Source: Catajapyx aquilonaris
Taxonomy: Eukaryota
NCBI GenBank assembly: GCA_000934665.2
Contig: JYFJ02003903.1
Location: 1 to 36,518 of the forward strand
Direction of reading: 5' to 3'
Length of the DNA: 36,518 nt
The notes below the pieces were generated by a model. That model was not told the DNA's origin. It saw only the letters and a list, made by a program, of their open reading frames with translations, and did no database searches. The position numbers were made by a program, and so were the translations under genes. This document shows positions 1 to 26,905 of the stretch, piece after piece; positions within the stretch are counted from its first letter, which is position 1; each line of letters opens with the position of its first letter.

Positions 1-355
1 TATTATGCTATTTGCAACTCAGTAGAAGCTAATGCGATTCCGATATGACGGTATTCAACTATGTTGGTCGTGATGTTGGTACACTACAGCCTGCTCTCTG
101 CTACCTCTGCTACATTTAGTCTCTCCCATTCTCACTTTTTTTCAATATTTTCAGTGCTCGAATATAGCAGAATATCTATAGCTGCTGCTGAGTTGCAATT
201 ATTTTCAGTTACTGTTATTTAAATAACAGTTATTGCAAAGTAGCTGTTATTTCTACTACGACGAGGGGAGCGGATCAGCGATGATAGGGGCCCATCTCTG
301 ATTGGCCGGATAGCTTCCAAGATCCTCTCAACCATGGCCTTAGAATACGAAGGTC

Positions 356-450
356 TGGTCCAGCCTCTGGACACTTCCCCTACAATCTATCTTATCGCCT
401 GCCGGGGCGTTTTGCATGAGGTGCTCACCTGAGAGCGCCATGAGACCTTT
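356..450 (+). mobile_element. Partial copy (left end + one arm) of an unclassified fold-back repeat family
   Basis: ggacac...tcttatcgcctgccggggcgttttgca..aggtgctcacctgagagcgccatgagac matches ~820-900 and 32263-32311. Confidence 0.7.
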
Positions 451-809
451 TCCTGCACTTCATTAATGATCAAAATTAAACTTGGTGGTCATATTGAAAG
501 ATGGCCACCCATTATATACGGTAACCTACAGATACGTTACAGATCATAATAATCGCCTGGAAATGTCATACAAAATAAAATTGAAAATCTGTTATTTATT
601 CTGATAATTATTTTACAATATACAGGGTGTTTCCTGTAACTCTGTAAAGACTTGCAGGGGTAATAGAGGGGACCCAGACAAGTATTTTTGACATAGGAAC
701 CTGTGTCCGGAAATGCCATCTAGAAGGGGTTCATAGACAAGGAACGGGTGCGCTCAGACGCTTCACGCGGGAGGCTCTAGGCGAGAGGACTGTTTTGTTG
801 ATAGATGGC

Positions 810-1155
810 ACCAGCCCCCGGACACTTATACTACATTCTGATCTTATCGCCTGCCGGGGCGTTTTGCAAAAGGTGCTCACTTGAGAGCGCCATGAGACAT
901 TTCACTCCCCAGGTATGTGGCGACCCTACCGGACTACGCTGAAATTTATAGGTACAAAAGGGAAGCGCTACATGCGGGCCCAAAATGGCCACCGGCGACC
1001 ATGTTGGGTCCCCCAATGTAGCGCTTCCCTTTTGTACCTATAAAGTTCAGCGTAGTCCGGTAGCCACATACCTGAGGAGTGAAATGTATCATGGTGCTCT
1101 CAAGTGAGCACCTTATGCAAAACGCCCTGGCAGGGGGTAGGTGGGGTGTCCAGAC
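810..1155 (+). mobile_element. Fold-back (palindromic) non-autonomous element, unclassified
   Basis: Imperfect inverted arms from cctgccggggcgttttgca (~850) to tgcaaaacgccctggcagg (~1133) around a short loop near 975-1015; distinct left and right terminal sequences; related copies elsewhere in the window. Confidence 0.75.
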
Positions 1156-1246
1156 CTGAGTATTCTATGACCATGGATGGCACGCAGTTGTTGCCGGTTA
1201 GTGATCATTTCTGACGTATTCTAAACAGATTTCATTTGTCCTGCAG

Positions 1247-1646
1247 ATCTGCAGCTGCCAGTTTAGTCTCACTTGCCACCAACTGCCGCAAGCCCCACGT
1301 GTTTGTACCAACTCTGCTCAGCTCAATTCTGGATATATTGGTACCTGTACAGGACACTGACACCAACACCATCTTGGGGGGTCTTGTTTGCCTCAGGCAA
1401 CTCGCCCCCCATCTGGCAATCCTGCCTGCTGACATTGACCGGCTCCTCCAAATGTTTGAGATCTGCATTCATTTCTTGGGACACTCAGACCACAATGTGG
1501 CATCTGCCTCACTGGAAACTCTGCAGCAGGTTTTGAGAACACCACCTGTCATTTTGGTGCAAGCCCTTATGGAACCGGGGAGGATATCAAGGTCAAGGAT
1601 TCATGCCAGTGGTGAAACAAAGCTGGAGTCTCGAAGTTTGAGTCAG
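1247..1646 (+). CDS. HTT: Huntingtin-like internal exon (N-terminal HEAT region)
   Basis: Acceptor tttgtcctgcag|A (phase 2) and donor CAG|gtacat (phase 0). Translation SAAASLVSLATNCRKP...ILVPV...ILGGLVCLRQL...HSDHNVASASLETLQQVLRTPP resembles recalled huntingtin TAAGSAVSIC...LLVPV...ILGVLLTLRYL...[22 protein letters not shown]. Confidence 0.82.
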
Positions 1647-1662
1647 GTACATTGTACTATGT

Positions 1663-2604
1663 AAATGTATGGCATGATTTGAATCACGTGATACAGTGTT
1701 TCTGTTTGCCCATGCGTAGGATATGGGCATAATTATGCTGGATCAGGGTAGGTGTGCCATTTGCAAAAATAGCATCTGGGTCAGCAGACCACCGTGCATT
1801 CGTTGTGGAGATTTATTTTTAAAATAATGAGTTCCTCATAGATGTACAAAGGATTTTTCGTCGCCATTTTAGGCTGGGACGTCAGGTCAAAGTCCCTGGC
1901 CACTGGACAATCCTAAGGTGGGTGAAGGAGTTCTGGGACACAGCATCATATCTGGACCAGAAAATCCCTGGACGTCCAAGGCCACAGTGGACGATTCAAG
2001 GGGTAAGAAATGCTCTAATCCGAAGTCCTTGGAGATCGGCCTTTCCAAGCACCCAAGAAAGGTCTTCGCCTCTTCGGAATACTTTGTCATATAGTGTACG
2101 TTCAGTTGTTGCATGACCTGCATGTATAAGGATAAAAGTGTAGGTCATCATAGCTGCTGTGACACAGGGAGCGAGCTGACATTGCTAGTGCCAAGGCGAG
2201 CATAAGGGACGATTGTCGTGGACTTAGAAGTAGCACATTGCGTACCATACTCCTTGAGGGGGTCTGCTGTGCCCTTGGATGTCCAGTGATTTTCTGGTCC
2301 AGAAATGATCCTGAGGCCCAGAACTCCTTCACCCACCTTAGGATTGTCCAGTGGCCAGGGACTTTGACCTGATGTCCCAGCCTAAAATGGTGACGGAAAA
2401 TCCTTTGTACAGCTATGGGGGACTCATTATTTTTAAAATAAATCTCCACAACGAATGCACGGTGGTCTGCTGAACCTGATGCTATTTTTGAAAATGGGAC
2501 ACCTTCCCCGATATAGTATATGCGCATATCCAGCTCATGGGCAAAGAGCACCACCGTACTACCGTACGTGATTCAAATCATGCCACACATTTTTCCCAAC
2601 CCTG
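1663..2604. mobile_element. Tc1/mariner-superfamily fold-back derivative made of two inverted 5' halves (DUF4817-type HTH N-terminus)
   Basis: 1663-~2050 and ~2200-2604 are diverged inverted copies; both encode SADHRAFVVEIYFKNNE...VQRIFR.HF...TILRWVKEF; right terminus ...aaccctg|TA (CAGGGT TIR), left TIR clipped; lies in the huntingtin-like intron. Confidence 0.75.
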
Positions 2605-2693
2605 TATATGATGCAAAACTAATTTTCTGACAAAAATCTTGTATAATATCACTGGGTCTTTGAGTGTACATACCTGCAACAACTTTCTTGTAG

Positions 2694-2922
2694 GTGAGTG
2701 TGGCACAGAGCAGTGTAGCAGTGGAGGATGACAGTGCATTGTTGGATGGGGATGCAGATGGCATGTTAGAGGGGATGGTGGATGCAGGAAGGAGGACACC
2801 AGCAGAAATGGTGGAAATGACTGACATAGTTACAGGCAGCTTAGAGGGAGAAGTGGATGATGATGATGAGGAGGAGGAAGTTGGAGCAGATGGAAAGTTG
2901 GCCAGAGGAACAAGGCTTGAGG
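2694..2922 (+). CDS. HTT: Probable next huntingtin-like exon (acidic low-complexity linker)
   Basis: Acceptor ctttcttgtag|GTG is phase 0, matching the upstream donor; donor G|gtaaat (phase 1); open and D/E-rich (EDDSALL...DDDDEEEE), as expected for the disordered acidic region after the first HEAT block. Confidence 0.6.
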
Positions 2923-3450
2923 GTAAATGTTCTGAGATTTCTCATTAGTGTAGATCAGGGTTTCTAAACTGGTGTTCCGTGAGAAATAGTGATGAATAGG
3001 CTACTCTAATCATGTGTAAATGTATATGATACCGTTTTCATGGTTTGCTTTTTGCTGCAGTCGCCATGGAAAAATCAAACATGCTGGACAAACAAACAAA
3101 CTTCGCCTTTCATATACGGATAGCAAAGGTACCCGTTCTTCGCACGGAAAATGATAAAGTTAGTGAGTAAATGAAAGAAGTTCATAAAATATGCATATTC
3201 ACTGAGTTAAGTCAGACATAATTATGTCAATGCTGCAGGTTCACAGGAGAGATGGCTTTGAACATGTCACATGAGAATGGCATCTGGTGGCCTAAAATCC
3301 AAATACGGGTATTGTGGGTTTGTACTCTATACACCAAATTTTACTGCCCGTCTTGTGGCGCCGCAGGCCAACGAACGGTATTGTGGCTTTGCCAACCTCC
3401 AATCGCATGCAAGCATCACCCGTCTAAGCACCGCTGATAGCTTGCTTGTT

Positions 3451-3646
3451 GGGGAGGTGTGGTGGCCGAGATGGTAACGTCTCGGCTTGCTGAGTGAAAG
3501 TTCCCAGGTTCGATCCCCTCCTGATAGTTCTCTTTGACCTGCGTCAGAAGGGTCTCAACCTGCATCTTGGAGGTGTCTGGCAACCTAACCTTCTCGGGAA
3601 CAGCACATGAGGCATGACCCGTTTAACGACATAGCACTTGCATCTA
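3451..3646 (+). mobile_element. tRNA-derived SINE, 3' part cut off by a MITE insertion
   Basis: A box TGGCCGAGATGG, B box GGTTCGATCCC; body matches the copies at 10359 and 22259(-). Confidence 0.8.
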
Positions 3647-3648
3647 TA

Positions 3649-4365
3649 CAGGGTGTCCCTTACTAGTCGCCTTTCCGTCCGGCAATGCACTCATTGGCCC
3701 CAAACAAGTCGTAAATGTAGGGAGGAGGAATGTCAAGGGAGTAACCGGTAAAGAGATAAACGATGATCAAGATGAGGTCGCCCCTAAGACAATCTCGGCC
3801 ACCCACCCACCGGCTTTTGTGCGGGAGGAGTGGCAATCTGTTCGACTCCCTCACGTGTAGGGGTTGTCTAGGGGGCAGGATATGAACCCGACATTGCTCC
3901 CTGAGCGCGAGACGACCTTGCTAAAACCATTGCCGCTCCTCCCGCACAAAAGCCGTTGGGTGGGTTGCAGCGATTGTAGGGGCGACCTGAGGGGTGTGGT
4001 GGAAAAACATGATAACTGACAAAGGTGTAATTTTTCAGGAGAGAGATTTGAAGTTTGCATTTTCTTAACAAATCATATAGAATTCAGGTTTTGATCTAGT
4101 CCGTGTGGCCGGCTCGTGCATGATACGTGAACTTGGAGTATACCAAACTGTTTGTCATGTCTTATACATTGTTGCTAGGTGTTTAGGTGAAAAATGACAA
4201 AATTGTCAGTTATCATGTTTTTCCACCACACCCCTCACCTCTTCTTGATCATCGTTTATCTCGTTACCGGTTACTGCCTCGACATTTCTCCTCCCTACAT
4301 TTACGACTTGTTTTGGGTCAATGAGTGCTGCACTGCCGGACGGAAGGGCGACTAGTAAGGGACAC
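3649..4365. mobile_element. TA-target MITE with long TIRs (CAGGGTGTCCCTTACTAGTCGCC...)
   Basis: TA|cagggtgtcccttactagtcgcc at left; ggcgactagtaagggacac at right with the last 4 nt missing at the LTR junction; ~125-bp imperfect inverted arms. Confidence 0.8.
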
Positions 4366-4529
4366 TGTTGCGTCTGGGTGTAGGATACTGGGGCGAGCAA
4401 TAATCACAACTCCACAGCTCTACACTCCATGTATTACGCTGTTCTAGTCTACTACAAAAAGCTTCCGCTTCAACAGGTGGCGGAGCCACTATCGCACTAG
4501 TTGCCAGGTGCATGTGTTGATACGTAACA
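4366..4529 (-). mobile_element. 3' LTR (164 bp) of a Gypsy retrotransposon
   Basis: TGTT...AACA inverted termini; on the - strand it directly follows a polypurine tract (GGGnG-run-AAGA, ~4531-4547) downstream of the integrase. Confidence 0.75.
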
Positions 4530-4547
4530 ATCTTCCCCCCCCNCCCC

Positions 4548-6448
4548 AAGTTCAAAATCCCGCAAGTAGGCAGGCTGGCGGCGCTCACGGACGGAGCGGT
4601 GCAAGGGACCCTGGGGTGCAGGCATTGGACTGTCAGGGACGGCCTGTCCCGGAAGAGGTCCAGGACCCAACAGGGGGGCCGGTCTAGGCGATGTCATCAC
4701 TGCGGGCACAGGAGGCGGCGGTGTCGCAGCGACAGGAACGACAGGCTCTGCACCCACCGGCAGCGGCGGCGGCACTGCAGGCGTCCCACCAGCAGTCGGT
4801 GGCAGTGATGGTTCAGCGGGCAAAGCCCCACCTGGCGGGACAACAGCTGGTCGACATGTCGGCGAGCTTGTCGGCCGTCCTGGAACTGTATGCCGTAGGT
4901 GTACGGCCCCGTCACATCAGTTATGGTCCCAGGCAGCCTACGTGGTCCCCGCGCATAATTCCTGGCATAAATTGTGTCGTCCGCGCCGAAATGCCGGTGG
5001 CGTGAAGCCTCATCCCACGCCGCCCGGTTCTCCTTCACCCTCGTTGGTCCATAAAGATGTAAGCGGTTCAAAAGGGTGCGTATGCGGCGCTCCATCAACA
5101 ATTCGGCGGGCGTCTTCCCTGTCGTGGTGTGTGGGGTGGAACGTAGGGAAAGGAGGACCTGTGGAAGGCGGACTTTCTATTCGCCTTCCACACGGGAAAG
5201 AGCGTCCTTGGGGATCTGTACTTCCCTCTCGGCCTGGCCGTTCTGCTGCGAGAAGGAGGGGTCCGGACGTGCTGGATCCCGTGCTGGGAGAGGTAGTCAC
5301 GGAACTCGGCACTAGTGAATTGGGTGCCGTTGTCGGTGACTATCACATCTGGCAGTCCATGTAGGCCGAACAAGGCCCGTAACGACGTTATGGTGTCCGC
5401 CGCAGGGATGGAAGGCATCAGGAACGCCTCAGGCCACTTTGAATACGCGTCCACCACAATGAGGAACATCTCCCCCTGGTAAGGTCCCGCAAAATCGGCG
5501 TGAATTCTTGACCAGGCCCGGGAGGGTACTGACCAATACAACTTGGGGACGTGCTTTGGATTGTGCCGGCTCTCCTGGCACGTGGCACAAGTTGATACGG
5601 TTGTCTCAATATCGGTCCAGCCCAGGCCACCAGACGTGAAGCCGAACCACTGCCTTAGTGACTACGATACCCTGATGGCTGCGGTGTAACAAGTCCATCA
5701 CAGGCGAACGAAGGGGCGCCGGAACCACGACCCGGTGACCCCATAAGATGCAGCCATTGTATGCGGATAACTGCAATCGGTGCCGGAAGTAGGCCTGAAA
5801 GTCCGAACCTGGGCAGACCGGAGGCCAACCGTGAAGAGTGCAGCGTAGAAGCCGCGCCAGCACAGGATCCTTCGCCGTCTCCTTAGCCACGTCCCATGCC
5901 GTGAGGGGGCCCTCCGCCAGCTGTTCCACATGCATCACTTCTGCTTCATCAGGAATGGGCTGGTCCACTGGCAGCTCGACCGGCAGACGGCTCAAGGCAT
6001 CGGCTTTGCCATGGCTCTTCCCAGGACGATATTCCAGGGATTAGTCGTATGAGGCCAGCATGACGCTGCCACGCAACATACACGGCGACAATACCGACGG
6101 AGAAGGTTTCCGGGAATCCAGGAGGCCAAGGAGGGGTTTGTGGTCAGTGTATAGGAGCACATGCCGTCCATAAATATACTGGTGGAAATGTCGCACACCC
6201 GAGAAGATGGCCAACGCCTCCTTGTCCAACTGCGCCAAATTCTTCTCTGGTGCAGTGAGAGTACGTGAACGATAAGCAATGGGTTGTTCCTTCCCCGCGA
6301 TGACATGGGACAGCACATACCCCAAGCCATATGGAGAGGCATCACAGCTCAGAACCAATGGCAGGTCCCGGCTGTAATGGACCAACAACTGGTCTGACTG
6401 CTGGAGATCCTTAGCCGCCAGAAAGGCACGTGCCTGGCGGTCACCCCA
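4548..6448 (-). pseudogene. Ty3/Gypsy (Mag/K02A2.6-like) pol remnant: RT connection, RNase H, integrase; 5' half missing
   Basis: WGDRQARAF, LSCDASPYGLG, RNase H YTDHKPL, ADALSRLP, integrase zinc-finger LHRSHQGI and core RIHADFAGP...VVDAYSKWPE...VTDNGTQFTS; in-frame stop at 6041-6043 and several frameshifts. Confidence 0.92.
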
Positions 6449-6450
6449 TA

Positions 6451-7455
6451 CACTGTAATTCATGTACCGGCTCGTGTACTGGCTCGGAGCCGGTATTTCG
6501 CGATCGCAAAATACCGCCTGGGTACTGGCTGATGACCGGCAATGTCCTGGCTGATGTCCCAGCTCGCAACCGGTACAACTGGCCACCTGCGCGCCAGCTG
6601 CGTATGAAAAAAAAAANTCCCCCCATCTCCTTCCTCTCGCCGCCACCAACCCTCCCCCCTTTTTTTATTGCTGCGCCCCCCTCCAATGCATACGTCATCA
6701 ACGGTGATGACGTCAAGACACCCCGCCCCCCCCCCCCAACCCGCCAATTGAAGGGGGGGGGAATCACATAATTATAAATAATTAACATTCCACATGGAAC
6801 TTAATTGACGCATTTACACTTTATTTTATCTATAAATAAATGTACAAAATCACATGTTAAATAACAAAAATATGACGCTGATGTCATAATAATCCTTGTT
6901 CTGACTTGCGCCCAAAACCATATCGGCGTTGCACTCTTGTAGTGGTATGTAGCACTCTGGCCCTTCACAATATGCGCTGGCCACATGTCCAGCTGCAATT
7001 CTTGTGATTCCTATCAGTCACCAGCACACATACACCGCGTCCACTGTCCATTGCTGCAGACTGAGCGACACTGAGGACTGAACTATACTGGCTGTGATGC
7101 GACCCAGAGGGAGGGAGGGGGGAGAAAAAATCTTGCATCATTTTCGAAGTCTTTGCCGTTGGGAAACTGAGGTTACTCAAGCAAAAAAAAAACCGACTCG
7201 GAAATAAATGGGCGGATTTTTTTTGTCCCCCCTCCCCCTCCTAAATCCTGTCGACACGTGTTCTCAAGGTTCCTCAATATACCGGCTCGGTACCAGTTCG
7301 GTACCAGCTCGATACCATCTGGAAGTGTGGACCACCTGTGTACCGGCTACAGCTAGGACACGAGGCTCTGTACCGGTTGCGGCCTACCTATGTACTGGCT
7401 AAGGCCACATGTACTAGCTGGGAAGTAGGACATAGCTGGTACATGAATTACAGTG
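6451..7455. mobile_element. Non-autonomous CACTG-terminal (CMC/EnSpm-like) DNA element
   Basis: TA|CACTGTAATTCATGTACC ... GGTACATGAATTACAGTG|TA; many subterminal GTACYRGCT-like repeats at both ends; no recognisable ORF. Confidence 0.8.
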
Positions 7456-7675
7456 TACTAGTAAGTAGTATAGGAATGTACAGAAGTAGGCTACTGTACT
7501 TACCTAATGAGTGCTACTTTTGCGCCTGTTTTGTGTCACAATTGTTGGATTCCCCCACCCCACCCCCACCCCTTCGTGCCCTACCGGTTGAGAACTGCTG
7601 GGATAAATGTAAGCCTTTGGCACTTAAGTTACACACACCGGTTACAAGAAAATTTACATTCCTTATTTTTTGCAG

Positions 7676-8060
7676 CCTTCTATCATCTTCATTGATGAAG
7701 TGGATTCCCTACTTGCCAAGCGCAAGGAGAATGAACATGAGGCATATAGGCGCTTGAAAACAGAATTTCTAGTCCAGTTTGATGGTCTCAAAGCGCAGTC
7801 AGAGGAACGGATTCTGGTTATGGGGGCCACAAACCTGCCACAGGAACTAGATGAAGCTGCACTGCGACGCTTCACCAAGCGCATTTACATAGCATTACCT
7901 GACAATGCCACACGTGTGTCTCTACTGCGCAAGCTGCTGGCCAAACAGGGTAGCCCATTGAGTGAGACAGAGTTAAATGAGTTGGCCACCCTTACTGATG
8001 GATACTCGGGAAGTGATCTCACTGCCCTTGCAAAAGATGCAGCCTTGGGACCAATTCGAG
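7676..8060 (+). CDS. SPAST: Spastin-like AAA ATPase, penultimate exon (Walker B, pore loop 2, SRH)
   Basis: Acceptor ttttttgcag|CCT (phase 0), donor G|gtaggt; [13 protein letters not shown]...RRLKTEFL...[16 protein letters not shown]...[20 protein letters not shown] is spastin-like. Confidence 0.9.
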
Positions 8061-8139
8061 GTAGGTCTAAAGAAGTCAATGTAACTTTTAATTTATGGGA
8101 AATACTGAAATGTAATTGGACAATGATAAATCGTTTTAG

Positions 8140-8303
8140 AACTGGATCCGGAGCAAGTGAAGTTTGTGGATCCCAAAACTATGAGGAACATCAGCCTGAA
8201 GGACTTCCAGGAGTCAGTGAAAAAGATCCGCCGCAGTGTATCCCCCCAGTCGCTTGTGATCTACGATAAGTGGAGGCAGGAATATGGAGACATGAGTCTC
8301 TAA
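8140..8303 (+). CDS. SPAST: Spastin-like AAA ATPase, last exon (Vps4_C-like tail)
   Basis: Follows a 79-nt GT-AG intron in phase 1: ELDPEQVK...[40 protein letters not shown]. Confidence 0.9.
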
Positions 8304-9429
8304 AGGGAACCACCACTGGCTGAAAGTTTCACTCCAAAAAAATACGTTTTATGGCAAAAAAAAAGACAAGTGACGTGCTCACATGGTGAAGCATAGTGTG
8401 TAATGTCCCCAAAGGGGATGGTTGCTTAATTAATACTGATGGGCTTATTTATTGACACTAGGCACGTTTTCGCCCTAGTCACAAAAGGGTTTGTACACGC
8501 ATGTACCGCACAGTCACTCGGAGGGAGGGGGGAGAGGGGGTATGAATCCCAACAATGGGGGGGGATACTGTTCTGTAGTACTGGTATGGCAGAAGCCCTT
8601 GTTTTCAAAGGGCTTGTGCAAGTCCACTTACGTTTGTTTTCATGCCAGGCTTGGCTGTGGGTGTATCAAGAGTGAGTTGCAGTTGTATAGAAAGGGGCTT
8701 TTTCAGATTAAAATAATGAATTTTCTTAGAAAATGATTTTAAAGTTCTATGATGTGAAACCAGTTCAACCAGCCCTCTGGAAAAATAAAATGAGTTGTGG
8801 CAGGTTTTCCCAGTGAGTTCTAAATAACATTGTCCATCCCAGCCTATGCACATTTTGGTGTCATTACTAACGCCACCTTAACTTTGTCAAGCAGTTTTAA
8901 GCATAGAAGAGGGGCTGACCAAACCTGGTGTGCATAATTTGCCACAGTTAAATTACTTTGATCTAGTCTTTTCCAAGTTTTACCTAGTTGTTTTCACATG
9001 ATGCCTTGACTTTTCAGTTGAGCTCACTTGTCAGAGATCTTAGCTTTTTATTGTTATTAGTGTTTCTGGAGAATTTGCATTAATTGCTGTAATTTATTTA
9101 TTGGTGTTGTAAAACCTGTTTTTATTTAAGAGTCAAGATTCAGTTGAATCGAAGAAAGCATGCCCCTAGGGACCTAAGCTTAGATGGGGAAAATGGCAGA
9201 AGGGGCAGATGTTTCTTACATAGTCCTTACTGTGTGTTGAAATTACCATGAGAGTTACCTAGCACCGTTTTTGCCATGCTTAGCAAAAAAGTTGTAACTG
9301 CAATGTGCCATAAGGTCAAGGATTGCTTGTCCAGCTCAATTATACTACTACAATGATCTGCAGTAGTCTCATTGAGTCCAGATAAATGAAATTAAACCTT
9401 ACTGCAATTTGTAGTTAGGACTTATAATA

Positions 9430-9582
9430 TAGGGTGTCCCTCCAGTCTGGAACCAAAGGAGTTTCCTATTTCATTGTTGTATATGGTTGCCATATATACC
9501 GGTGAATGTAGCCATAGTAACTATCTACTACAACAATGTAATAGGAATAACTCCTATGTGTCCAGACTTGTGGGACACCCTG
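9430..9582. mobile_element. Short TA-target MITE (CAGGGTGTCCC TIR)
   Basis: ta|tagggtgtccctccagtctgga ... tccagacttgtgggacaccctg|ta. Confidence 0.65.
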
Positions 9583-10160
9583 TAGTACAGGTAATTTTCT
9601 TACAATGCAGTATTAATTCAACTTGTGCAATATAGCTCATGCCTATGCCTATTTTCCACTGGAATAATGTCCAACTCAGCGTAATTTGTAAATCCAAGCC
9701 CAACAATCCTAATGTGTGCCAAAGGAATGTGTGTGATAGTAGCTGGAAACTAATCTTTGGTATATTTTGAACCATTTCATGAAGACTGTGAAGTATTTAG
9801 TGGTGATATTGTCTTTTAAAATTTGGGGATGGTTTTGTTACATTGCAGATGTGCTCTAGCAGTGGGATGCAATTGTTTGTGGCTTCATTTGAGAGGGAAG
9901 AAGCCAAAACAATTAAGGCTGTCTGGCAATAGTAAATATGTAGACAGGTTGAAAGAGGGAGTGGGAGACAGATGCAGATGGGTTTATTGGTCTGGCTGCT
10001 TCCCCACAAAGATTGCTCCTGCTCAGGATAACCAGCCAGTAGGAGGTGCAATTGAAGAGCTCTGGAACAAAATGGTCTCTAAGAAAATATTAAGAATTTT
10101 TCTGGCTATTAGCAATGAATGAAATACAGAATTAATCATCCCCACGTGTCTTAGTGTATG

Positions 10161-10923
10161 CATGGTGCAGAAATTTAACGTACCTTCTCTTTGGGGTATG
10201 GTAGAAGGGTTCTAGTCAATAATTTTAAGTATAGCTATCATGGGTCTCCGAAGCATAGTTACCATGAAAACTAGCATTGAATAAAAAGTGCATTATACCA
10301 GTTTATATGTTCCGGATGCAGCCTATGACACTTCCATTGTCTGCTAATGAGATCACATGGGGAGGTGTGGTGGCCAAGATGGTAACGTGTCGGCTTGCTG
10401 AGTGAAACGTCCCAGGTTCAATCCTCGCCTGGGAGAGCTCCCTTTCGCCTGCGTCAGGAGGGTCTCTGACCCGCACCTTGGAGGTGTCTGGCAACCTAAC
10501 CTCATGGGGGGACTGCACATGACCTGCTTACTGACATTGCACCTGCACTCATATCCCCTCCCTAACAAACCCCATCCTTACCCAATGTCCTTTTGCCCTT
10601 GCACCGGTGCTAAAGAAAAATAAGAAATGCAATTTATGGTGGTTCACCTTCCCCCCCTAATTGAGCTCCGTTCTCTCCAATGGGGTAATTGGGGGGGGGA
10701 TCACATCTTAAATTTAAATTGCATGGTAACACCTAAAATCAAAATGAAAAAGGTAATGTCACCTGGAGGGATGCATACCTGCCAGGATATTTTATACCTT
10801 GTCTTGGACACCCATTCTCTCAGTAACTATGCTGCGGAGACCCATGATGCCTATACTTAAATTGATGGCCAGAACCTTTCTACCATCCCACAAAGTGAAA
10901 GTGCTTTAAATTTCCGCACCCTG
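10161..10923. mobile_element. Long-TIR MITE (CAGGGTGCGGAAATTT type) carrying a nested SINE
   Basis: ~100-bp imperfect inverted arms (catgggtctccgaagcatagttac / gtaactatgctgcggagacccatg); related to 21344-21791. Confidence 0.65.
10359..10621 (+). mobile_element. tRNA-derived SINE, near full length
   Basis: A and B boxes, shared body, 3' end tgcaccggtg...aagaaaa matching the copy at 21989-22259. Confidence 0.8.
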
Positions 10924-11369
10924 TAAATTCATATGTAAAAATTTCCCGGGTTAAAGGAGGGTTCATTTCTTGGAAATGAAAACATGCGAGCAAGGGTAGA
11001 AGGGCCTATGGAGGGGGGCATATTGAAGTATTTTTGCTCTTTGTGATACGTACTGTACGTATAATGTTGTAGCAGTCCAAAAATTGCGTCACAGTCTGGA
11101 TCTGAATCAATAATTGAAAAATATTCATGTTTAACATTCTCCCCCTGGAAGTTCAAATTATCTAGTATTTTAACCCCCTGAGACAAGGTGGAGGCATTGT
11201 GCCTCCACCCTCTTATGGAATGGGGGCCACTGGGCAGCACTGCAGCAACAAGTGCTTGCACGGAACTGTCATGAACAAAAGATCACAAATATTGAGAGAT
11301 TCCTGGTATCCTTGTATGCCGGGAGACATTGGTAGCAGGATGCTACTGTACAATACCCAATAGCACAAC

Positions 11370-11448
11370 TGGAGGCCTTTATGCACAAAGGAACCAGGTG
11401 TCATGTGACTCACATGACACCTGGTTCCTTTGTGCATAAAGGTCTCCA
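11370..11448. repeat. Near-perfect palindrome, 39-bp arms, 1-nt centre
   Basis: Centre 11409; one mismatch (11375/11443). Confidence 0.95.
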
Positions 11449-11659
11449 ACTGCAAACCAGTTATGCCTCATGCCCTCATGGCCCAAGTTGCATGGGCTCC
11501 TCCAATAAAATGAAACAAATTTTTCAACCAATAGTCTTTTTTTCTGCTCATGATATTATCATACATCCACATGTAATGTAAGCAGGAGGAAGTCTTCCTC
11601 ACATTGTCACAATTGACACATTCCGTTCATGGAAAGATATTAAGTGTCAATCTATTATA

Positions 11660-11854
11660 CAGGGTGTTCCACGTTTGTGGGTCAATCAGTTATCACCGAT
11701 ATCAAGGTTCCCCATCACTTCCAGGTGGTCGAATGTAGCAGTAATGTTGCTATAGAATATGGCACCTGGATCGGGTCACAACAAGCTACAAAAAAATAGC
11801 CGCTTCAAGAGAAATTTTTTATAACTAAAGTACTAATATACATGGAACATCCTG
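11660..11854. mobile_element. TA-target MITE (CAGGGTGTTCCA TIR)
   Basis: TA|cagggtgttcca ... tggaacatcctg|TA. Confidence 0.65.
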
Positions 11855-12137
11855 TATATCACTGTGAAGTCAGTGGCCTCTCATGCATGCATTTTATGTG
11901 AATTTAGGTTTGTTTAATTCCTTCACACTCCCCCCAAAAATTTTAATGCATACCACGTTCTACCCCAATGCACAATGTACTAGGATGTATGACACATACA
12001 GTATACCATGCGTGTGCAAATATCATGGTTACTTGACTCAATGTGGTATGGGATTCCACGTGTCGGGAGCAAGCCATCCTTCTCTACTCAGGATAATAAT
12101 GTCATATTCAAATACACTTCATATGGAAGTAAAAGTA

Positions 12138-12321
12138 CAGTGAAGCCTGTCTATAATGGACCCTGAGTAGAGCGGAAACTTGTCCATTGCCGAATTATTT
12201 CTGGGAATGGGCATAGGACACTGAGTGTATTTTTAAATGGAGATACTCGTAGTAGAAACTCCTGACCATTACAGAAAATTTTTAGGGTCCCATGCCACTC
12301 CGCTATTCACTGGTTTCACTG
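12138..12321. mobile_element. Tc1/pogo-type MITE (CAGTGAA TIR)
   Basis: TA|cagtgaagcc ... ggtttcactg|TA. Confidence 0.6.
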
Positions 12322-12675
12322 TATTATCACAATACATTCTTTTGGCACCATACCCATTTGGTAATACAGAATAATCAGCAATGAATTCATGTGTTTTTTC
12401 AAATTTGATTGTTAACCAGATGTCATTTATTGTGTCGTTCAGTCTCGAGAGTTTTTTGCACTACATGTGAAATGTTAATTTTAAGCTTATTTAAATCACT
12501 ACCATGGATTCTACACAGGTTAGAAGTTTTGATAACTGAAAATCTAGATGCTACTTGAATTAAGGTGTATTGAACCATTCTGTACCATAGCAATTTTGAA
12601 AATCTCCAACCTGGAATTTTCTTATCTGGCTGTTTGCCAAATCCGCTTCCTGGTTGTGATGACTGGCAGAAAATA

Positions 12676-13258
12676 CAGTAAAACTTCTATAAGTCGAATC
12701 TCCATGGGACCGGAAAAAAACTTCGAGTTATAGAAGATTCGAGTTAGAGAAGTTTGGCTTTTTTTAAGCACAGAACTCTATAAGGAAGCCTACCTTTATA
12801 TCCAGTGACGAAAGGTTTTCAAAACTTAAAAATAGCTGTCACTATCACACAATGTTTCTCGTTGTTTTGGTGTAAAAAAATACTCTGTGATGGACATTTG
12901 CCTACACTTAGATTCAAGGATTCAATTGTCACAATCGAGTCAAACACTTCTTTCGGTACGTCTTGTAGACGGAGATCAGGAAATTGAGCCTTTCTGTACA
13001 TATGTGGCCTACTCTCGACCCTTCGGCTGGGAAATGAGAAAATTTTCTGTACTCGCCAACATGAACTTCGACTTAGGTAGACTGCAAATGCATTGATATC
13101 CCATCGTAAGGCCCTGCCTGCACTTCGAGTTATGGAAAACTTAGAGTTGTAGAAATTCGAGCTAGGGGAGTTTATTTCCTATTATTTTACATTGTGACCA
13201 ACCAAGCTCATAATTTTCTTCGACTTAGAGAGAACTTCGACTTATAGAAGTTTTACTG
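12676..13258. mobile_element. Tigger/pogo-type MITE
   Basis: Perfect 23-bp TIR CAGTAAAACTTCTATAAGTCGAA with TA on both sides; internal ttcgagtta/ttcgactta repeats. Confidence 0.85.
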
Positions 13259-13313
13259 TAATTATTCACCTGCGTCAAACTGGCAAGATTGTCTCATAAA
13301 TAGCATGTGATCC

Positions 13314-13524
13314 GGGCAATTCCACGAAAGGCGGCCATATTGTCCGTACGTAACGCAGGTTTTGCAGACATGTACTAGCGTATTTTATTGTAACAATACC
13401 CACACATTACATGAAATTGATTAAGCATGCAGTGCATGCATCCTGGCATTGTTATAATAAAATACTCTTGTGCACGTAGGCAACACTTGCGTTACGTACG
13501 GACGGCTGCGCCATGGAATTGCCC
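13314..13524. mobile_element. MITE with GGGCAATTCCA TIR and 4-bp TSD (Sola2-like)
   Basis: ATCC|gggcaattcca ... tggaattgccc|ATCC; internally quasi-palindromic. Confidence 0.75.
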
Positions 13525-14840
13525 ATCCCTAAAAAATTCACATTCATTCATTACTGGTGCAAGACTTGTGTATTTATCTGGCATTGGAGCTAAGGCCTGT
13601 GAAAATTCCCATTCAGAAAACAATGTAAAGTTACCCAACCTTTAAAAAAGCAGGCAATCTTTGTGTGTTAATTGCTGATGTATTTTCAATGATATTTTGA
13701 AACTCCCAGTGGCGTCCAAATAAATGTAAATGTGATTGACACCGGTGATTGAAGAGAAGCTCAAATAAAGTATCTAGTTGTAGGCGCGTGAATCAAACTG
13801 CTGCACTTTTTGGCGTCCATTGATTGGTCAACCCCTCTCATATTGCACCTGTTGAAACTTCTTGCTTGTTCCCATTTGTTACAATGTATTTTGATACTTT
13901 TGATACATAGATGGAATGTTTTCTCTCTATTGTTATGGTTTTATGACCTAGATGTTTGTGTTTGTTGGTGCTGATATTGTTTTTGTGTTTAGTCCAAGAA
14001 TGCATTATGTTGAGCTCTAATGTGAATTTTAACTTGAAAAGCAATGTGCTTTATAATAACTTCGTGTCAGATGGCCTTGTTATGACATTTTTGAATTTTC
14101 CATTGACAACTATCACTTTTAACACTAGAAATAACGAGCGATCAACATGGATGAGAAGGCATTCCTGTCATAACATTGCCATGACAGTTTGTATGTTTTA
14201 GGTGATGAGTTTATCACCTTTTACAAAATGTAAATAAAGTTCAATGATTAGAAATATGTAGTTGCTCATTATGTACCTGTTGCTGACAACATATCCTTTT
14301 GCACAGTGCTTGTGCAGCAGTACCGAGAATACACGTCATCCGAAGCCTTGAAATGCTTTCAATTCCAGAAATTGGCCTAAGGTAGTGCGTGTAAGGAGGG
14401 TTGTTTCACTGGCCTTGATCAAGCTGTTATTAGGGACATCAAGTGGGTCAGGGATTTTGGTGCATTGGAACATTTGCATACTTGCACCAGTTTGTAATGT
14501 CATTGCGTTGACTTTTAGGATGTAATTTGTTTCAACTTGGTCCACTCAGGGTCAGTTTATGGTGGCATCAAATCAAAATTGTAGAGTGGAAGCAGAGAAA
14601 GTTATGTTTTTTTTTGTTTTTTTTTTTACCCAGAAGAATTTTGTTAGGTATGTTGATAACAGAATTAGTCATGAAATGTGTAGAATTTTATGATGATGCC
14701 ACAGCTTGTTGATGATTGCTGTCATATAGCTATATTTTAGCATAAAAAGCTTACTACATGGTTATTGTCATGACTACTAATACAACTAAATGATCTGTCA
14801 CTTTTTGTGGCATGCTGATAAATGCATAATATACATTATC

Positions 14841-14911
14841 AGCATACCATTGGTGAGCCCACCAGCACATGCATATTATGCATGTGCTGGTGGGCTCACC
14901 AATGGTATGCT
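14841..14911. repeat. Perfect palindrome, 35-bp arms, 1-nt centre
   Basis: agcataccattggtgagcccaccagcacatgcata-t-tatgcatgtgctggtgggctcaccaatggtatgct, centre 14876. Confidence 0.95.
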
Positions 14912-15813
14912 CGAGGTGTAAACCAGGAAAAGATTTTCTTAATGAGAACCTCTGCTGAGACTCAACCCTGAGTTTCTTGCATGGTCAAGGTAACTCACCT
15001 CAGCTGTCAAGCAAGTTTGGGCATCAGTTGACTGCCTTGATACATACCAGTTTCCAAAAAATACACGGCCAGTCTGTGGCATGCTGAGGTAGGCCAAGTG
15101 CAACTGTTGAGATAATTATGTGGCCACATCTGTTCGTGCTGACTAGTTCCAGTTCAGAAGTTTTTTGATTACAATTTCAGCGGTTCTAGTTTCGAGAGTG
15201 AAAATGTTCCATTGAGTAAAAAGTCACGATGCTTCAAGCGAAAGAGAAAGCAATACGTATAAGCAGTCTGGCATGGAACTGGATTGCATTTCTCTAGCTT
15301 CCCACAGAAATTGTTTATCTATACCTTGACCCCTATTAGGTAGTCCTCTGTTGGTGGCAACAACCTGGACCTTGGCTTGAGGAAGTAGTGCACGTTATTG
15401 AGGAAAAATCAGTGTGCTGTTTTCTTTCTTTGGTAACATCTCATTGTCACGGAGCTTCATGTTGGTAGTTATGTCACTCATATAATAGTGTCAGTCCTTG
15501 CTGATTCATAACAATAAAATTAGTATTCACTGTATGATCTTCAACTCTACAGTAACCACTGATATTTTCCTAATGTGTTTAGCCTGCTTCATTTAATGTT
15601 TAATCATTTACAGTTGTTCTAGGCTTAGTTTTTCAATAAGTCAAGGCAGCATGCTATGGAAACAATGACTGCACTTACAGTATAATATTATGTTAGAAGA
15701 GGAGGATAAGAAGTGTACACTTTTTACGTCACAATAATTATACACTTTTGTACCAGCTGGCTTGATTCTGTGAAACAAATGCTTATAAATATGTCTTTAA
15801 AAATATCTACGCA

Positions 15814-16151
15814 CAGTGAAGTTCTTTAATAGGACCTAGATTCAACATAAACAACCTGTCCACTGCAAAAATGTTCGGTCCAGGAGGCGTATACTCATCC
15901 AGGTCACTCGCAATCGACAAAGTCGATTGACGTCAAAATGACGTCGCCAATGATGGCGAGGAGAATTGGCGACGTCATTCTGACGTCAATCGACTTTGTC
16001 GATTGCGAGTGACCTGGATGAGTATACGCCTCCTGGCAGAGGACTGGTAATATGTTTCTATTGTACTAGTACCGTATGTAGAAAACACTTGTCCAGTTAG
16101 GAAAGTTTTGTGTGGAATGGACAAGAAATTCCGCTATAAACACTTTCACTG
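15814..16151. mobile_element. Degenerate CAGTGAA-type MITE hosting a palindromic insert
   Basis: cagtgaag...atag at left and ctata...ttcactg at right; resembles 12138-12321. Confidence 0.45.
15880..16036. repeat. Hairpin element, ~72-bp arms with 1 mismatch and a ~13-nt loop
   Basis: ccaggaggcgtatactcatcc...gacgtcgccaat / attggcgacgtc...ggatgagtatacgcctcctgg. Confidence 0.95.
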
Positions 16152-17175
16152 CAAGGTAGGTTTTAGTGGACTGTTGGATACGTGACTTTTAAAGTTAGTG
16201 TTCTCTATCTACCTAGTAATAGACAAGTTGATTTCTGACACTCAGTAATTTTTATTTGAATGCAGTACGGAAGGATTCCTTCACATACTAGGTTTAAAAT
16301 TCACTTTAATACACAATTTATACTTGACAAAGAAATCGTTTAATTCATAATCGTGGCTCGCTTTTACATTGCTCACTGTAGCAAGGTAAACCAGGAACTT
16401 CACGGAGCTGACTGACACATTAATTGCCGAGTGACGTTGGCAGTCACTGTGCACTTGAAGGTTAAACATGAAATAATGGCATCGAGTAATCCAAATGAAC
16501 TCTTCTCACGCACTATCCCCATTAATGAAATGGTTGAGTGCAACTTGCATTACCTTCACCTGTTGGGACACTTTTTGAGGTAATTGAGAATAACTTGCGT
16601 GTATCTGGGCAGTGTTTAAGGCATAATTATCAAGAATCAGCTTTTAATTATTATATTTCAATCAGGTTGATATTCTACATGTGAAATGTTTTCTTCGCCA
16701 TTTCTTCAAGATCTTGACAATACCAAAGTCCAGTTTTTTGATTGTGACATTTGCTTGTTGCGCTTTCAACATATTCAGGTGATTGAAAACGTATTTGAAA
16801 TATGGCATTGGGTTTACTGATAAGGTGTCTAAAAACGTCATAGGTATAGAGAATAATTCTCAGGTTACAACAGAAGCGCTGTGTTGTAATACATTTCAGG
16901 TAGTTTATAAAGGCTTGATTCTGAATTGGAAAGGTTCTCTTGTCCGGAATATCTCCGGTTATAGACTTAATTCAAACTTGTAGTGAAAGAACTAATAGCA
17001 GGTTACATTCATCATAAAAACAACCGCAAAAATAAGGTCCGGATATCAAGTGAGAGATCAAAATGTAAGTAGCATTACAGTGCACCAGTGCACGTTACCT
17101 TTAATATTTTACATGCAATACATGAAGTCGATGTTTATCAGCACGACAAATAAAACCTTCACAATGGTGAAACTA

Positions 17176-17186
17176 CTCACGTGACT
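17176..17186. promoter_or_regulatory. CLEAR/E-box-like motif upstream of the NPC2-like gene
   Basis: CTCACGTGAC is a 9/10 match to GTCACGTGAC, ~300 bp before the ATG; an Inr-like TCAGT follows about 12 nt later. Confidence 0.4.
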
Positions 17187-17487
17187 TTGAGAAAAAGTCA
17201 GTGTGTGTGTGTACATTCACTCTCCTTGACTCCCTATCCTAAGATGTTGAGTGATAATTATTTTCCTCTTCAGCCTATTAGAGCAAAATCTACTCCTTTC
17301 TGCAAGCCCATCATCCTTGCTGCCGGACCTTGAAAAGGGTGGTCCTGTAATCGGCATAGGATCAGACGGGACAGTCCGTGGATGGACTTGCCCTCCTTTT
17401 GCCTCCTCTGATTCAAGCCGGGAAAGTGGACGGTAGCAGACAATCACTCTGTACATCGTCTAAGGTGTTCCTTGCTGACTCCAAGTC

Positions 17488-17587
17488 ATGAAGCTGGTCG
17501 CGATCTTGTTTCTCCTAATGTGTGTTGCATTGGCTCAGAGGTCACCCAGACCCAGACAAAGGGCGCTGGAGCCACAAGATTGTGAAG
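17488..17587 (+). CDS. NPC2: NPC2/ML-domain lipid-binding protein, exon 1 (signal peptide)
   Basis: MKLVAILFLLMCVALA signal peptide, ...PQDCE; donor G|gtaaac (phase 1). Confidence 0.85.
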
Positions 17588-18920
17588 GTAAACGAATGGA
17601 GTATTCACATAGCCACTTAATTTTCCCAGGTGCTTACTGGAGGGGGGATTATTGGGTGTGTGAATGGACGTTTATGTGTTGCATAAATTGTGACTTGTTT
17701 TTATTGATTTCCGAGAGTAGAGTGCTGCAGAATTGCAAAAAGTTCGAAAACTATTTTAAGACGGAAAATATATGCTGAACGATTATAGTTATAATTAACT
17801 ATAATTTCCCAAAGCATTTATTTAGGGGGCTGTAATTTCTCCAGCAGAAAACCGACTTGACCATAAGAAAGTACGTGTCAAGAGCTGCATGACAATGCCT
17901 GACTCAATTTTGATCAAAATGGGACTCTGACTGTTCTGTATTTCAAGTCTTCATTGCAATGTAAGCAAAGAGCTTCCATATTTTGGGCATAATGGCTAAA
18001 ATATTCCGCCTGCACTGGCATTTTGCGATACGAAAAGTCCTTCCACTACGACAATGGGTTAGATGACTAGTAGTAGGCTAACTGAAAAACAAGTTGTTCG
18101 GTTCGAAATTGTTGCCGTAAATAATGCATAAGGATCAACTCGCTGTTTTTCAAATACAGTACTACAAGATTACAAAGGCTGGTGAAATTGACAAAATAAA
18201 GTAGCTAAAAGCAGCTGGGGTGACATAATCACATGATATTAGGATGTTTTTTAAAAATACACAGCAGGACGCTCTTAGGAATTTATTGGCAAAATGTGGG
18301 TGGTGTGCTAAAAGTCACTTACGCGGTTTACGCAATCGTTTCGCATTACCCAATTTCCCTAGGTTCTATAGGCGTCATGGAAGACTGGTTTAGTATTTTT
18401 TGCTCTCTAACAAACAAATAACTGGATTTACTTCAGAGAAATAGAGTCATTATGAATGTCGCTGTAACCTTGAAAGCGTTTGAAATAAATTATAGCGTTT
18501 AAAAAAAGCTGCTTACGTTTAAGTTCACTGGCTCAGTGATTTTTCACAACTGCACTGGGCGAGGGAGGGTGGGTGATTGCCCTAATAAAATTACACTACC
18601 GCATTAAAATTTTAAATAGTTTAAAATTCTCATCGTGTCTTAAACGTTACTACGCATTTTTATAGTGTCCTTGATATGTAATTGATCCACAAAAAATGAG
18701 TTCTTTCCTCAAATAGCAAGCACCTATAGAATAACAGCAAGTTATGCAACTAGGTTGAAAGGATATAACTGGGAATCGCAATTTTTTTTTGCCGAACTTG
18801 AGTCCTTCGAACAGAGGTTCGATCATTTTTGTAGACAGCACAGACCTTGAATAATTTATGTCAATTTTTTGCAGATCTTACCTGAGGGGCTACCAATGTT
18901 TTTTCCTCGCAATTTTTCAG

Positions 18921-19028
18921 AATTTAGCAATGGAATTGTGGTCAGGCTGAAGCTCACACGATGCAGGAGGTACCCTTGTGTACTCAGGAAAGGCACGAAC
19001 GTTACCTTGGAATTCGATTTTGAAATAG
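18921..19028 (+). CDS. NPC2: NPC2/ML-domain protein, exon 2
   Basis: tttttcag| ... G|gtatat, phases 1-1; CRRYPCVLRKGTNVTLEFDF is the ML-family motif. Confidence 0.9.
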
Positions 19029-19089
19029 GTATATATTGTGTGTTGACTCATCAATATATTTGGGACTGATTTTTCTATATATATTGCAG

Positions 19090-19289
19090 ATTATGAGGTG
19101 GCCAATATTACGAACTCCGTCCATGCCCTTCTGGGTAGCGTAAAGGCACCTTTCCAGGGTGTTCATGGGACACTGGCATGTCCATATCTTTTTGAGAAGG
19201 AAAGTGGAGAACTTGTGAAGGACTGCCACCTAACTCCTGGGGTTTATACCTACAAAAATAGTTTTCCTATTCGAAAGGAGTATCCAGCA
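19090..19289 (+). CDS. NPC2: NPC2/ML-domain protein, exon 3
   Basis: ttgcag| ... GCA|gtaagt; VHALLGSVKAPF...ACP...DCHLTPGVYTYKNSFPIRKEYP. Confidence 0.9.
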
Positions 19290-19589
19290 GTAAGTATGTC
19301 CAGATTCGTTATGTAAATATATTTTGTGAACTGATATGAATCACAATATATTGACAAGATGGAGAGAACAAAAATCAAGCTGACAATATTGTGGTCATAT
19401 CCTCTGTATATGGGGTTTTATAGTGGACAGGTTCTAAAGTTTATTTCCCTTCGGGAATTGATGGGATCTTTTAGTTGTTCCTAATAATATTAGATGAAAA
19501 AGTGAAATGCAGTTTTTAAATGTCTCTTTCCTGAGTGGTGAAAACATGAACTTGAAACTAGTGAATTTGCAATTATTTTTCTTTTGAAA

Positions 19590-19876
19590 TAGTCACAGAA
19601 AGTGCTAGGAACCTTACATAGTTTTGATTTTACTTTTTATTGAAATGGTAGATGATGGCTAATTTTTTGACTTGCAAATTGCCCATTTAAACTGATATTT
19701 GATTAAAATATGGCAACACCTCAATTGCAGTGGGGAATTTTGCTTACGAGCCATTTTAATTTTATTACAATAAATGTTCACGAACAATATGCAACTCAAA
19801 CATTAGCCATCATCTACCGTTGTCTATAAAAAAGAAAGTAACAATTCTGAAAAGTTCCTGGCACCTTCAGTGGCCA
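19590..19876. mobile_element. Degenerate MITE in NPC2 intron 3
   Basis: Imperfect inverted segments agtgctaggaac/gttcctggcac and ggtagatgatggctaat/attagcccatcatctacc. Confidence 0.45.
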
Positions 19877-21223
19877 CTCAAAGTGCTAATTTGCAAATTA
19901 GCGAGTTTCAAGCTCATGTTTTCGCTACTCAGAAACCAGATATGCCCTACCAGTACCTGTACCCTATTAAAAAACTGACTTTCCCTTTTTCATCTAATAA
20001 CTTATTATTAGGAACCACTACTAAAAATGGTACCTATATTCTAACCTGTAAGAGCATAATCAATCCTGACAGGGATCCTTTTCTTTCATTGGGTCTTTCA
20101 GTTGGGAAAATGCCAATTAACGAATGTGAACATTGATGTTTGGTGTACGTTATATGCGTAGTCTAACTTGATGTGAACGACCCTCATTAACAAAACAATC
20201 TGACTAATAAGGAAGATAAAAATCTCAAAGCGTTCATCCAAATGGAAAATCTAGAAGGTTGCAATGACTAAGCACCTACTTGTAAGGAGCTCAATTTTCC
20301 AGCTCAAAAATCTCCTTGTTTCGAACACGCGCCTTCCTAGCCATTATCCTACCCGATCCTATACCATAAGGAGGAGAGCTGAGATGATTGTATTCAGCCT
20401 GAGAATAAATTCGCAAGTCTTTAATCCTTAATTATAATGCATAATTATTATATTTGCGACATTCCTTGTTACTCATTGCGATACCATTGCTGTTCTAAGG
20501 CTAAATATATCACACCTAGCAACGGTTTTTTTTAAATAGTTACGATGGCCCACAAGTGGTTCTCGCAGTATTATTTGCATCAGTTCACGGAATGTTACTC
20601 CAGTGGAACAAGGGCCTAACTTCATATTCGATTGTTACACTACTTGTCTTATTGGACCGTGTATTGGACTATTCAGTTGTTTTATGGCAAGGATTATGCA
20701 AGGTTGGTTTTTACTTCAAGCCTATAGGACATATGAGGTGGGGAAGGTGGTAAATGCGCATTTTCCTTACTCCCATCTGGAAGTGTAAACTATTCATCAT
20801 GCGCAATATATTGGAAGAGAAAATATTATTTTGTTCCACCATTTGTAGGCCGATTTGTTGGAATGGTATCAGATCATGAATGGTGTCACCTTGCACTAAT
20901 TTCAATGAGATATCGGGAACCGGCATCGGATTTCTTGAAAAAAATTATGCTTGTGCTGGGGAACCATGAGAAAAGGCAAATGCCGCAAGGGGGTATAACC
21001 ACTTCGGTACTCCGGTGTACAGCTGCGAGTGTTACTCCCAGGTAATCCTTAGGTAGGCCTACCTTACTCTTTGGTACCCCTAGGTACGCCTTGAATTTGG
21101 TACCCCTTGGTACGCCTAGGTTTATAGGGTGATTTTTACCATTTTTAATTTAGTTCATATTTTGGGTTAGCTTGTGGTTCCCGTCATCGCTGACTACCCC
21201 TTTATAGGGAAATGTCGTGATGG

Positions 21224-21224
<1 letters not shown>

Positions 21225-21284
<60 letters not shown>
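21225..21284. repeat. (GTT)20 microsatellite
   Basis: Direct reading; ggtacgccttgaatttggtac occurs at ~21083 and again immediately after the tract. Confidence 0.95.
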
Positions 21285-21343
21285 GGTACGCCTTGAATTT
21301 GGTACTCCAGTGTACACTTGAGATGCCGAGTCCAAATAAGATG

Positions 21344-21791: not shown

Positions 21792-21988
21792 GTACGGTAT
21801 AGATCATTCAACCCCACAACACCTCTGCGCAGCCGGCAGCCCCAAGGGCAGTCAAAGTATGGCACAATGCACAGAAGGCCGCAGAACATTTATTGTGTGT
21901 AATACCCCGTGATAGGGCCAGGGGCCCTTTCAGGCGGTGGAATACCACCATTATTTATTTATTTTTTTCAAGCGATTTTTCTGAAAGA

Positions 21989-26837: not shown

Positions 26838-26905
<68 letters not shown>
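26838..26905. repeat. (GAT)n microsatellite between two outward-facing MITE-like termini
   Basis: Direct reading; gttatatccagattcaac at left and gttgaatccggatataac at right. Confidence 0.95.

Follow-up and report, generated by a model that had tools for sequence, protein, structure and literature searches.

The locus under study lies near the start of a 36,518-nucleotide stretch of animal nuclear DNA from Catajapyx aquilonaris (GenBank assembly GCA_000934665.2, contig JYFJ02003903.1), referred to below as the window, which holds spliced genes and many interspersed repeats. A piece of a huntingtin gene, beginning at position 1247, is followed on the same strand by the end of a spastin gene, whose coding sequence finishes at 8303. 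A preliminary description of this DNA, made from its letters, had proposed a candidate chimeric locus. We conclude, with a probability of roughly 0.85, that there is no huntingtin-spastin fusion gene here. The parts of the two pieces are the following.

1247 to 1646, plus strand: huntingtin exon, covering the end of the N-HEAT_1 region and the helices that follow, about residues 200-420 of full-length huntingtins.
2694 to 2922, plus strand: low-complexity acidic frame bordered by AG and GT, its phase compatible with that of the donor at 1646; putative second huntingtin exon (disordered acidic stretch).
3061 to 3128, plus strand: small frame with AG/GT borders, phase-compatible.
7676 to 8060, plus strand: penultimate spastin exon, which starts in phase 0 behind the acceptor AG at 7674-7675 and encodes the AAA domain's second half, IIFIDE stretch through lid.
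8061 to 8139, plus strand: intron of 79 nucleotides, GT..AG, absent from the RNA-like contig and present in the DNA contigs described below.
8140 to 8303, plus strand: last spastin exon, with a Vps4_C-type C-terminal helix and the stop codon TAA at 8301-8303.
8304 to 8761, plus strand: spastin 3' untranslated region, to the extent of the RNA-like contig; AATAAA follows at 8784-8789.

The data collected for both pieces were protein similarity searches and comparisons with assembled sequencing runs. The huntingtin exon was searched with phmmer against 1.84 billion representative proteins (E<=1e-3), and the window was scanned with Pfam on 179 plus-strand frames of at least 45 residues and 58 minus-strand frames of at least 75 residues (E<=0.01). 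Both strands were also searched by tblastn with 11 spastins and 21 huntingtin-like proteins. Four DNA runs were found, all from a single sample that is probably the source of the assembly, together with a small run from a different study, X5, whose kind stands on record as "?"; none of these runs is recorded as RNA. Contigs of the DNA runs X1, X2 and X3 and of X5 were compared with window positions 1-20000; X1, X2 and X3 are from the same sample, so that their contigs and the assembly are not independent of each other. X5 was judged RNA-like from its spliced contigs alone, since its record 30 (depth 101.7) skips two GT..AG introns (17585>18919 and 19026>19088) before continuing into window position 22596. 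X5 thus behaves as RNA, and the splice evidence below comes from this one run of one study.

The C-terminal ~185 residues of spastin are encoded by the exons at 7676-8060 and 8140-8303, which reach 80% identity to annotated spastins. Among distinct PDB sequences, the ten best were all spastin (E 4.8e-56 to 8.9e-51), the next being fidgetin-like 1 (1.1e-41), and the closest relatives of 7676-8303 are spastins, ahead of other AAA ATPases. The Pfam assignments were AAA (2.1e-16, model positions 57-130 of 131), AAA_lid_3 (1.3e-09) and Vps4_C (1.5e-07), and the IIFIDE stretch in the penultimate exon is what we take to be Walker B. The agreement of tblastn, PDB and Pfam bears out the earlier placement of the last two spastin-like exons downstream of the huntingtin piece and on its strand. 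In the tblastn search with the 11 spastins these two exons were the only match in the window on either strand, and spastin residues before ~306-535 gave none at E<0.1. The Walker A (P-loop) half of the AAA domain was not found in the window by tblastn or Pfam, and the Pfam frames of both strands contained no MIT family and no second AAA piece. The earlier observation that no spastin MIT or Walker A exon lies upstream in the window was therefore correct. Neither metagenome_contigs nor genome_contigs contained an exact match to a 32-mer taken at the start of the 7676 exon.

The splicing of the 7676 exon was deduced from record 25 of X5, a contig of 2,033 nucleotides at depth 6.5 in which both spastin exons are joined and the 79-nucleotide intron is removed. 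Its letters 1021-1409 correspond to window 7670-8058 and its letters 1410-2033 to 8138-8761, with 0 differing letters, and the X5 depths in bins 7338 to 8671 are exactly those expected from record 25 alone. Letters 1-1020 match no listed window position and are thus not the huntingtin exons. The six letters of record 25 before 7676 read TTGCAG (Leu-Gln), identical to the last six letters of the intron at that place, from which the upstream exon was deduced to end in TTGCAG. In 97 of the 120 spastin matches LQ stands directly before the PS(I/V)..F.DE motif. In spastins this motif is preceded by a median of 408 residues (range 78-892), so that 1,020 nucleotides of upstream mRNA are of the expected size. 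They presumably represent spastin exons for the MIT, microtubule-binding and Walker A parts, and we infer a splice between the 7676 exon and ordinary spastin exons located outside the window. The preliminary description had named splicing of each exon set to its own gene outside the window as an outcome that would speak against its proposal, and on the spastin side record 25 has this form.

The candidate donors on the huntingtin side end in AGTCAG (1646), TTGAGG (2922) and GCAAAG (3128). None of these equals TTGCAG, and because the sequence upstream of 7676 ends in TTGCAG, the 7676 exon was deduced not to be spliced to the huntingtin donors. This bears directly on an expressed chimera in which huntingtin HEAT exons would be spliced in frame, from 1646 or 3128 to 7676, onto the spastin Walker B, lid and C-terminal helix. 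The DNA would permit such a splice: the two pieces share a strand, the splice sites are canonical, and phase 0 is common to the acceptor at 7676 and the donors at 1646 and 3128, as had been described for 1646 and 7676. The compatibility of phase thus stood, but the sole contig with the 7676 exon joins it to TTGCAG-ending sequence, unlike every huntingtin-side donor, and the two junctions that had been proposed, 1646>7676 and 3128>7676, are opposed by record 25, which fits neither donor. Of the features that mark a fusion gene, then, same strand, canonical sites and compatible phases were found, and a transcript joining exons of both parents was not found in X5, a single RNA-like run. Furthermore, the product would be without the first half of the AAA domain, as the Pfam AAA match begins at model position 57 of 131; a Htt family occurs in 0 of the 120 listed spastin-like proteins by their precomputed Pfam domains; and a literature search returned no publication combining huntingtin, spastin and "chimeric gene". 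An expressed chimera was deemed scarcely credible.

For the huntingtin piece, the exon at 1247-1646 is bordered by AG at 1245-1246 and GT at 1647-1648; its first nucleotide finishes a codon, 133 codons run in frame from 1248, and it ends in phase 0. The phmmer search gave 144 matches (best E 2.0e-26, best identity 50%), which fall at residues ~200-420 in proteins of 2,685-3,113 residues. For neither huntingtin nor spastin did the searches bring up a protein of the organism itself. Four long matches (P0123, P0132, P0133 and P0134) were examined by Pfam, and all four carry Htt_N-HEAT_1, Htt_N-HEAT and Htt_bridge, with Htt_C-HEAT present in three of them. The PDB matches were huntingtin in nine cases out of nine (E 2.9e-14, chain residues 272-405). 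On the frame 1215-1661 Pfam found no Htt family at E<=0.01, and a word-index protein search with the exon gave no match. Since the exon falls between the Pfam Htt models, its identification is carried by phmmer and PDB, and the similarity to the region between N-HEAT_1 and N-HEAT is significant. Across 21 homologues, 26 alignment columns show conservation of at least 80%, and the exon retains 22 of them; when each homologue was left out and subjected to the same test, from 18 of 31 up to 26 of 26 columns were retained. Judged from its letters, 1247-1646 looks like a working, undecayed exon, because the conserved columns that it keeps lie within the homologue range, and it is free of stops, frameshifts and splice-site loss.

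The preliminary description had counted two huntingtin-like exons. The first of these is supported by phmmer and PDB, and for the second, at 2694-2922, the assignment is plausible: of the 21 huntingtins, seven have a collinear match directly behind the exon-1 match, the best with E 0.006 when composition was left uncorrected, and these matches are weak and driven by composition. The small frame at 3061-3128 gave no match to huntingtin-like proteins and is unsupported as an exon of huntingtin; with a total depth at 3059 of ~2-5x single copy, it may be repeat DNA. The X5 depth is 0 in the bins 1335-2001, 2002-2668 and 2669-3335 over the huntingtin exons, a value that is uninformative on huntingtin expression.

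The rest of huntingtin was sought in three ways. The 21 huntingtin-like proteins matched only 1245-1649 by tblastn at E<0.3; neither tblastn nor the Pfam frames revealed N-HEAT (PF12372), bridge (PF20925) or C-HEAT (PF20927) anywhere in the window on either strand; and a motif scan for the next conserved block (RVSVK / SFLL type) gave only three chance SFLL matches, with stops nearby in frame. All three results uphold the earlier statement that no later huntingtin exon is present in the remaining ~33 kb. In PMC1636649, the Ciona huntingtin is given as 2,946 residues and the ancestral chordate huntingtin gene is inferred to have at least 40 coding exons, figures which illustrate how much of huntingtin the window lacks. 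A naturally truncated or split huntingtin, that is, a short N-terminal gene ending soon past 2922 and nested in or beside spastin, would agree with the good preservation of the 1247-1646 exon and with the frame 2694-2948, which stops (2946-2948) 26 nucleotides beyond the candidate donor. By eye, however, there is no AATAAA in the ~300 nucleotides after 2948, and the short huntingtin-like proteins of 552-922 residues reach the conserved block that comes next and are apparently partial gene models. Such a gene was considered very unlikely.

The stretch between the two pieces (~3.2-7.5 kb) consists of repeats only. These and the repeat within the huntingtin piece are listed here.

1663 to 2592, no strand assigned: foldback transposon remnant within the intron downstream of the huntingtin exon, its inverted arms being 1663-1987 and 2267-2592; a DUF4817 helix-turn-helix is encoded in a minus-strand frame.
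3450 to 3642, plus strand: short interspersed repeat of very high copy number in the DNA runs, with further copies at 10358-10547 (plus) and 22069-22259 (minus).
3653 to 4365, no strand assigned: foldback repeat resembling a miniature inverted-repeat transposable element (MITE-like).
5098 to 6040, minus strand: degenerate retrotransposon integrase, with rve at 5098-5661 and Integrase_H2C2 at 5609-6040.
6449 to 7457, no strand assigned: terminal inverted repeat (TIR) element of 1,009 nucleotides, reading TA-CACTG...CAGTG-TA across its two borders, with 24-nucleotide terminal inverted repeats at 6449-6472 and 7434-7457 and ~8-10 copies by depth.

The last of these is the CACTG element of the preliminary description, whose presence is thereby established. 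In the DNA runs the summed word depth is 17,000-41,000 in bins 3336-4002 and 10006-10672, which hold the 3450-3642 repeat, versus ~20 for single-copy sequence. The copies of this family are 76-81% alike within the window. A tRNA-derived origin for it is unsupported, since ARAGORN and Rfam recognise nothing anywhere in the window. The three N in the window (4543, 6617 and 23555) each fall within a homopolymer run, and no scaffold gap is visible.

The depths of the X3 contigs were 28.3 for 1147-1810 (huntingtin exon), 20.8 for 7456-9547 (spastin), 20 for 4535-6112 and 27.4 for 16007-19504. Because these are all single copy, neither piece is a recent duplicate; both are single copy, and the spastin exons of the window are the expressed copy. 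Among the listed DNA contigs, which come from one sample, none bridges 1810-4535 or 6112-7428, and the contigs break at the repeats of these two stretches, whose copy numbers range from ~8-10 (TIR element) to >1,000. Separately, the window differs from the single-copy-depth contigs of the source sample at 6332, 6395, 6402 and 6406, all within 75 nucleotides, and one run also carries the window letters at three of these positions. This suggests two diverged copies or alleles of the retroelement remnant. Record 19 of X3, a DNA contig with the spastin exons, extends to the left of 7456 by 42 letters unplaced on the window; its break falls exactly at the boundary of the TIR element, and the X1 and X2 contigs track the window to 7428 and 7430. 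The 42 letters may represent an empty-site allele or a different left neighbour, and no conclusion was drawn from them.

Elsewhere in the window, positions 17488-22682 on the plus strand hold an expressed gene for a small secreted ML-domain protein (NPC2 / Der p 2-like), with its ATG at 17488 and a signal-peptide-like start. Its introns, as given by the X5 contig of depth 101.7, are 17586-18918, 19027-19087 and 19290-22595, and Pfam assigned E1_DerP2_DerF2 (1e-05) to the frame 19047-19313. The most abundant repeat of the window lies at 12674-13340, where the DNA runs reach summed word depths of 68,000-125,000; it also occurs in X5 contigs. A palindromic MITE-like family is represented at 846-1139 and 32259-32550 (69-89% alike, depth in the thousands), with partial copies at 360-450. 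A tandem duplication of a 221-nucleotide unit, 99.5% identical, occupies 28956-29396, and long trinucleotide microsatellites, (GTT)n and (GAT)n, lie at 21231-21285 and 26830-26905.

Of the causes that had been offered for the adjacency of the two pieces, fusion is not supported by X5, and both a mis-join and a partial duplication were kept, as the repeats are unbridged by the listed DNA contigs. We tentatively prefer an assembly mis-join or repeat collapse in a short-read draft, at somewhat less than even odds. On this explanation, 7676-8303 is the genuine 3' end of an ordinary spastin gene, single copy and expressed, whose mRNA carries at least 1,020 nucleotides of upstream sequence encoded outside the window. 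The exon at 1247-1646, and probably also 2694-2922, is a well-preserved 5' part of huntingtin that is not spliced to spastin. The two would have been joined over a 4.5-kb repeat-only stretch made up of the short interspersed (SINE-like) repeat, the foldback, the retrotransposon integrase remnant and the TIR element, and the mis-join or collapse would have dropped the remaining huntingtin and the 5' part of spastin from the scaffold. This is favoured because it explains together the functional-looking single-copy huntingtin exon, the ~2,500 absent codons, the spastin without its 5' part and the repeat-only join. The huntingtin exon seems to be part of a working gene, so ~2,500 remaining codons should follow, yet none were found in the window. 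Huntingtin cannot simply continue downstream, as the expressed ML-domain gene occupies that strand at 17488-22682.

Several points weigh against this interpretation. There is no N-gap at the join, and the stretch may have been assembled as a single contig, where a mis-join is less to be expected than at a scaffold gap. The TIR element is flanked by TA on both sides, as a true insertion would be, although TA is little informative. The retroelement piece at 4535-6112 is not a collapsed repeat, since it is single copy. For the splicing itself, the spastin identity of the first 1,020 letters of record 25 is an inference, and X5 is a single RNA-like run of kind "?" from one study.

Some of these points would favour a real order, in which a partial huntingtin copy of one to three exons with their introns lies on the same strand within a repeat-filled spastin intron of >7.7 kb, non-functional, with an intact huntingtin elsewhere. 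If the assembly is right, the huntingtin piece does lie inside a spastin intron, because the upstream exons of the single expressed spastin copy are beyond the 5' end of the window. The lack of a visible scaffold gap and the TA on both flanks of the TIR element agree with this, and the huntingtin piece is both flanked and interrupted by transposon remnants. The intact 133-codon frame, the canonical AG/GT and the 22 of 26 conserved positions are, however, unexpected for an old dead copy, and a young copy is excluded by the single-copy depth, so that only a copy diverged by ~5-10% fits. We rank this arrangement second, as possible but unlikely. A variant of it, in which some tissue uses the HEAT fragment in the last long spastin intron, whether as an alternative 5' module with an in-frame splice to the Walker B exon or as a short huntingtin of its own, is highly improbable; if true, it would mean recent exon shuffling between two genes related to neurodegeneration.

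A further possibility is that both genes are intact and interleaved on the same strand, with a huntingtin intron of >33 kb holding the spastin end and the ML-domain gene and a spastin intron of >7.7 kb holding the huntingtin piece. Both pieces are single copy and functional-looking, as this would require, and nothing in the window contradicts its contiguity. Against it, the introns here were short before transposon insertions (79 nucleotides, 61 nucleotides, 1.3 kb, and 1,047 nucleotides including 930 of foldback), same-strand interleaving of two multi-exon genes is from general knowledge very rare, and no huntingtin exon was found across the 33 kb downstream. Interleaving was thus considered improbable.

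If the adjacency is an artefact, gene models built here would contain a spurious huntingtin-spastin chimera and cut both huntingtin and spastin short, and it would be advisable to split the scaffold between ~3.2 and 7.5 kb. Should the order be real, the locus is a modest instance of a gene fragment lodged in the intron of another gene. Wider interest would arise only with an expressed in-frame product, which the one RNA data set opposes.

Compared with known systems, 7676-8303 has the C-terminal ~185 residues of spastin, a microtubule-severing AAA ATPase of the meiotic clade, and is spliced and expressed in X5. Unlike full spastin, the window has the last two exons only, and the Walker A half, MIT and the microtubule-binding part are absent. 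Likewise, 1247-1646 aligns at ~200-420 with huntingtin, a HEAT-repeat scaffold of ~2,700-3,100 residues, including the human structures, and the acidic stretch is collinear; unlike full huntingtin, it is followed within 35 kb downstream by none of N-HEAT (PF12372), bridge and C-HEAT. The locus resembles gene-fragment pseudogenes or nested genes if its order is real, with a huntingtin fragment in a spastin intron amid transposon remnants, but differs from such pseudogenes in that the fragment is without stop, frameshift or splice-site loss. It also resembles the repeat-mediated mis-joins of short-read drafts, in that two unrelated, truncated, single-copy genes meet over unbridged repeats, but there is no N gap at the join, and this likeness is a matter of judgement. 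Both pieces are ordinary members of their families, and it is their neighbourhood alone that is unusual.

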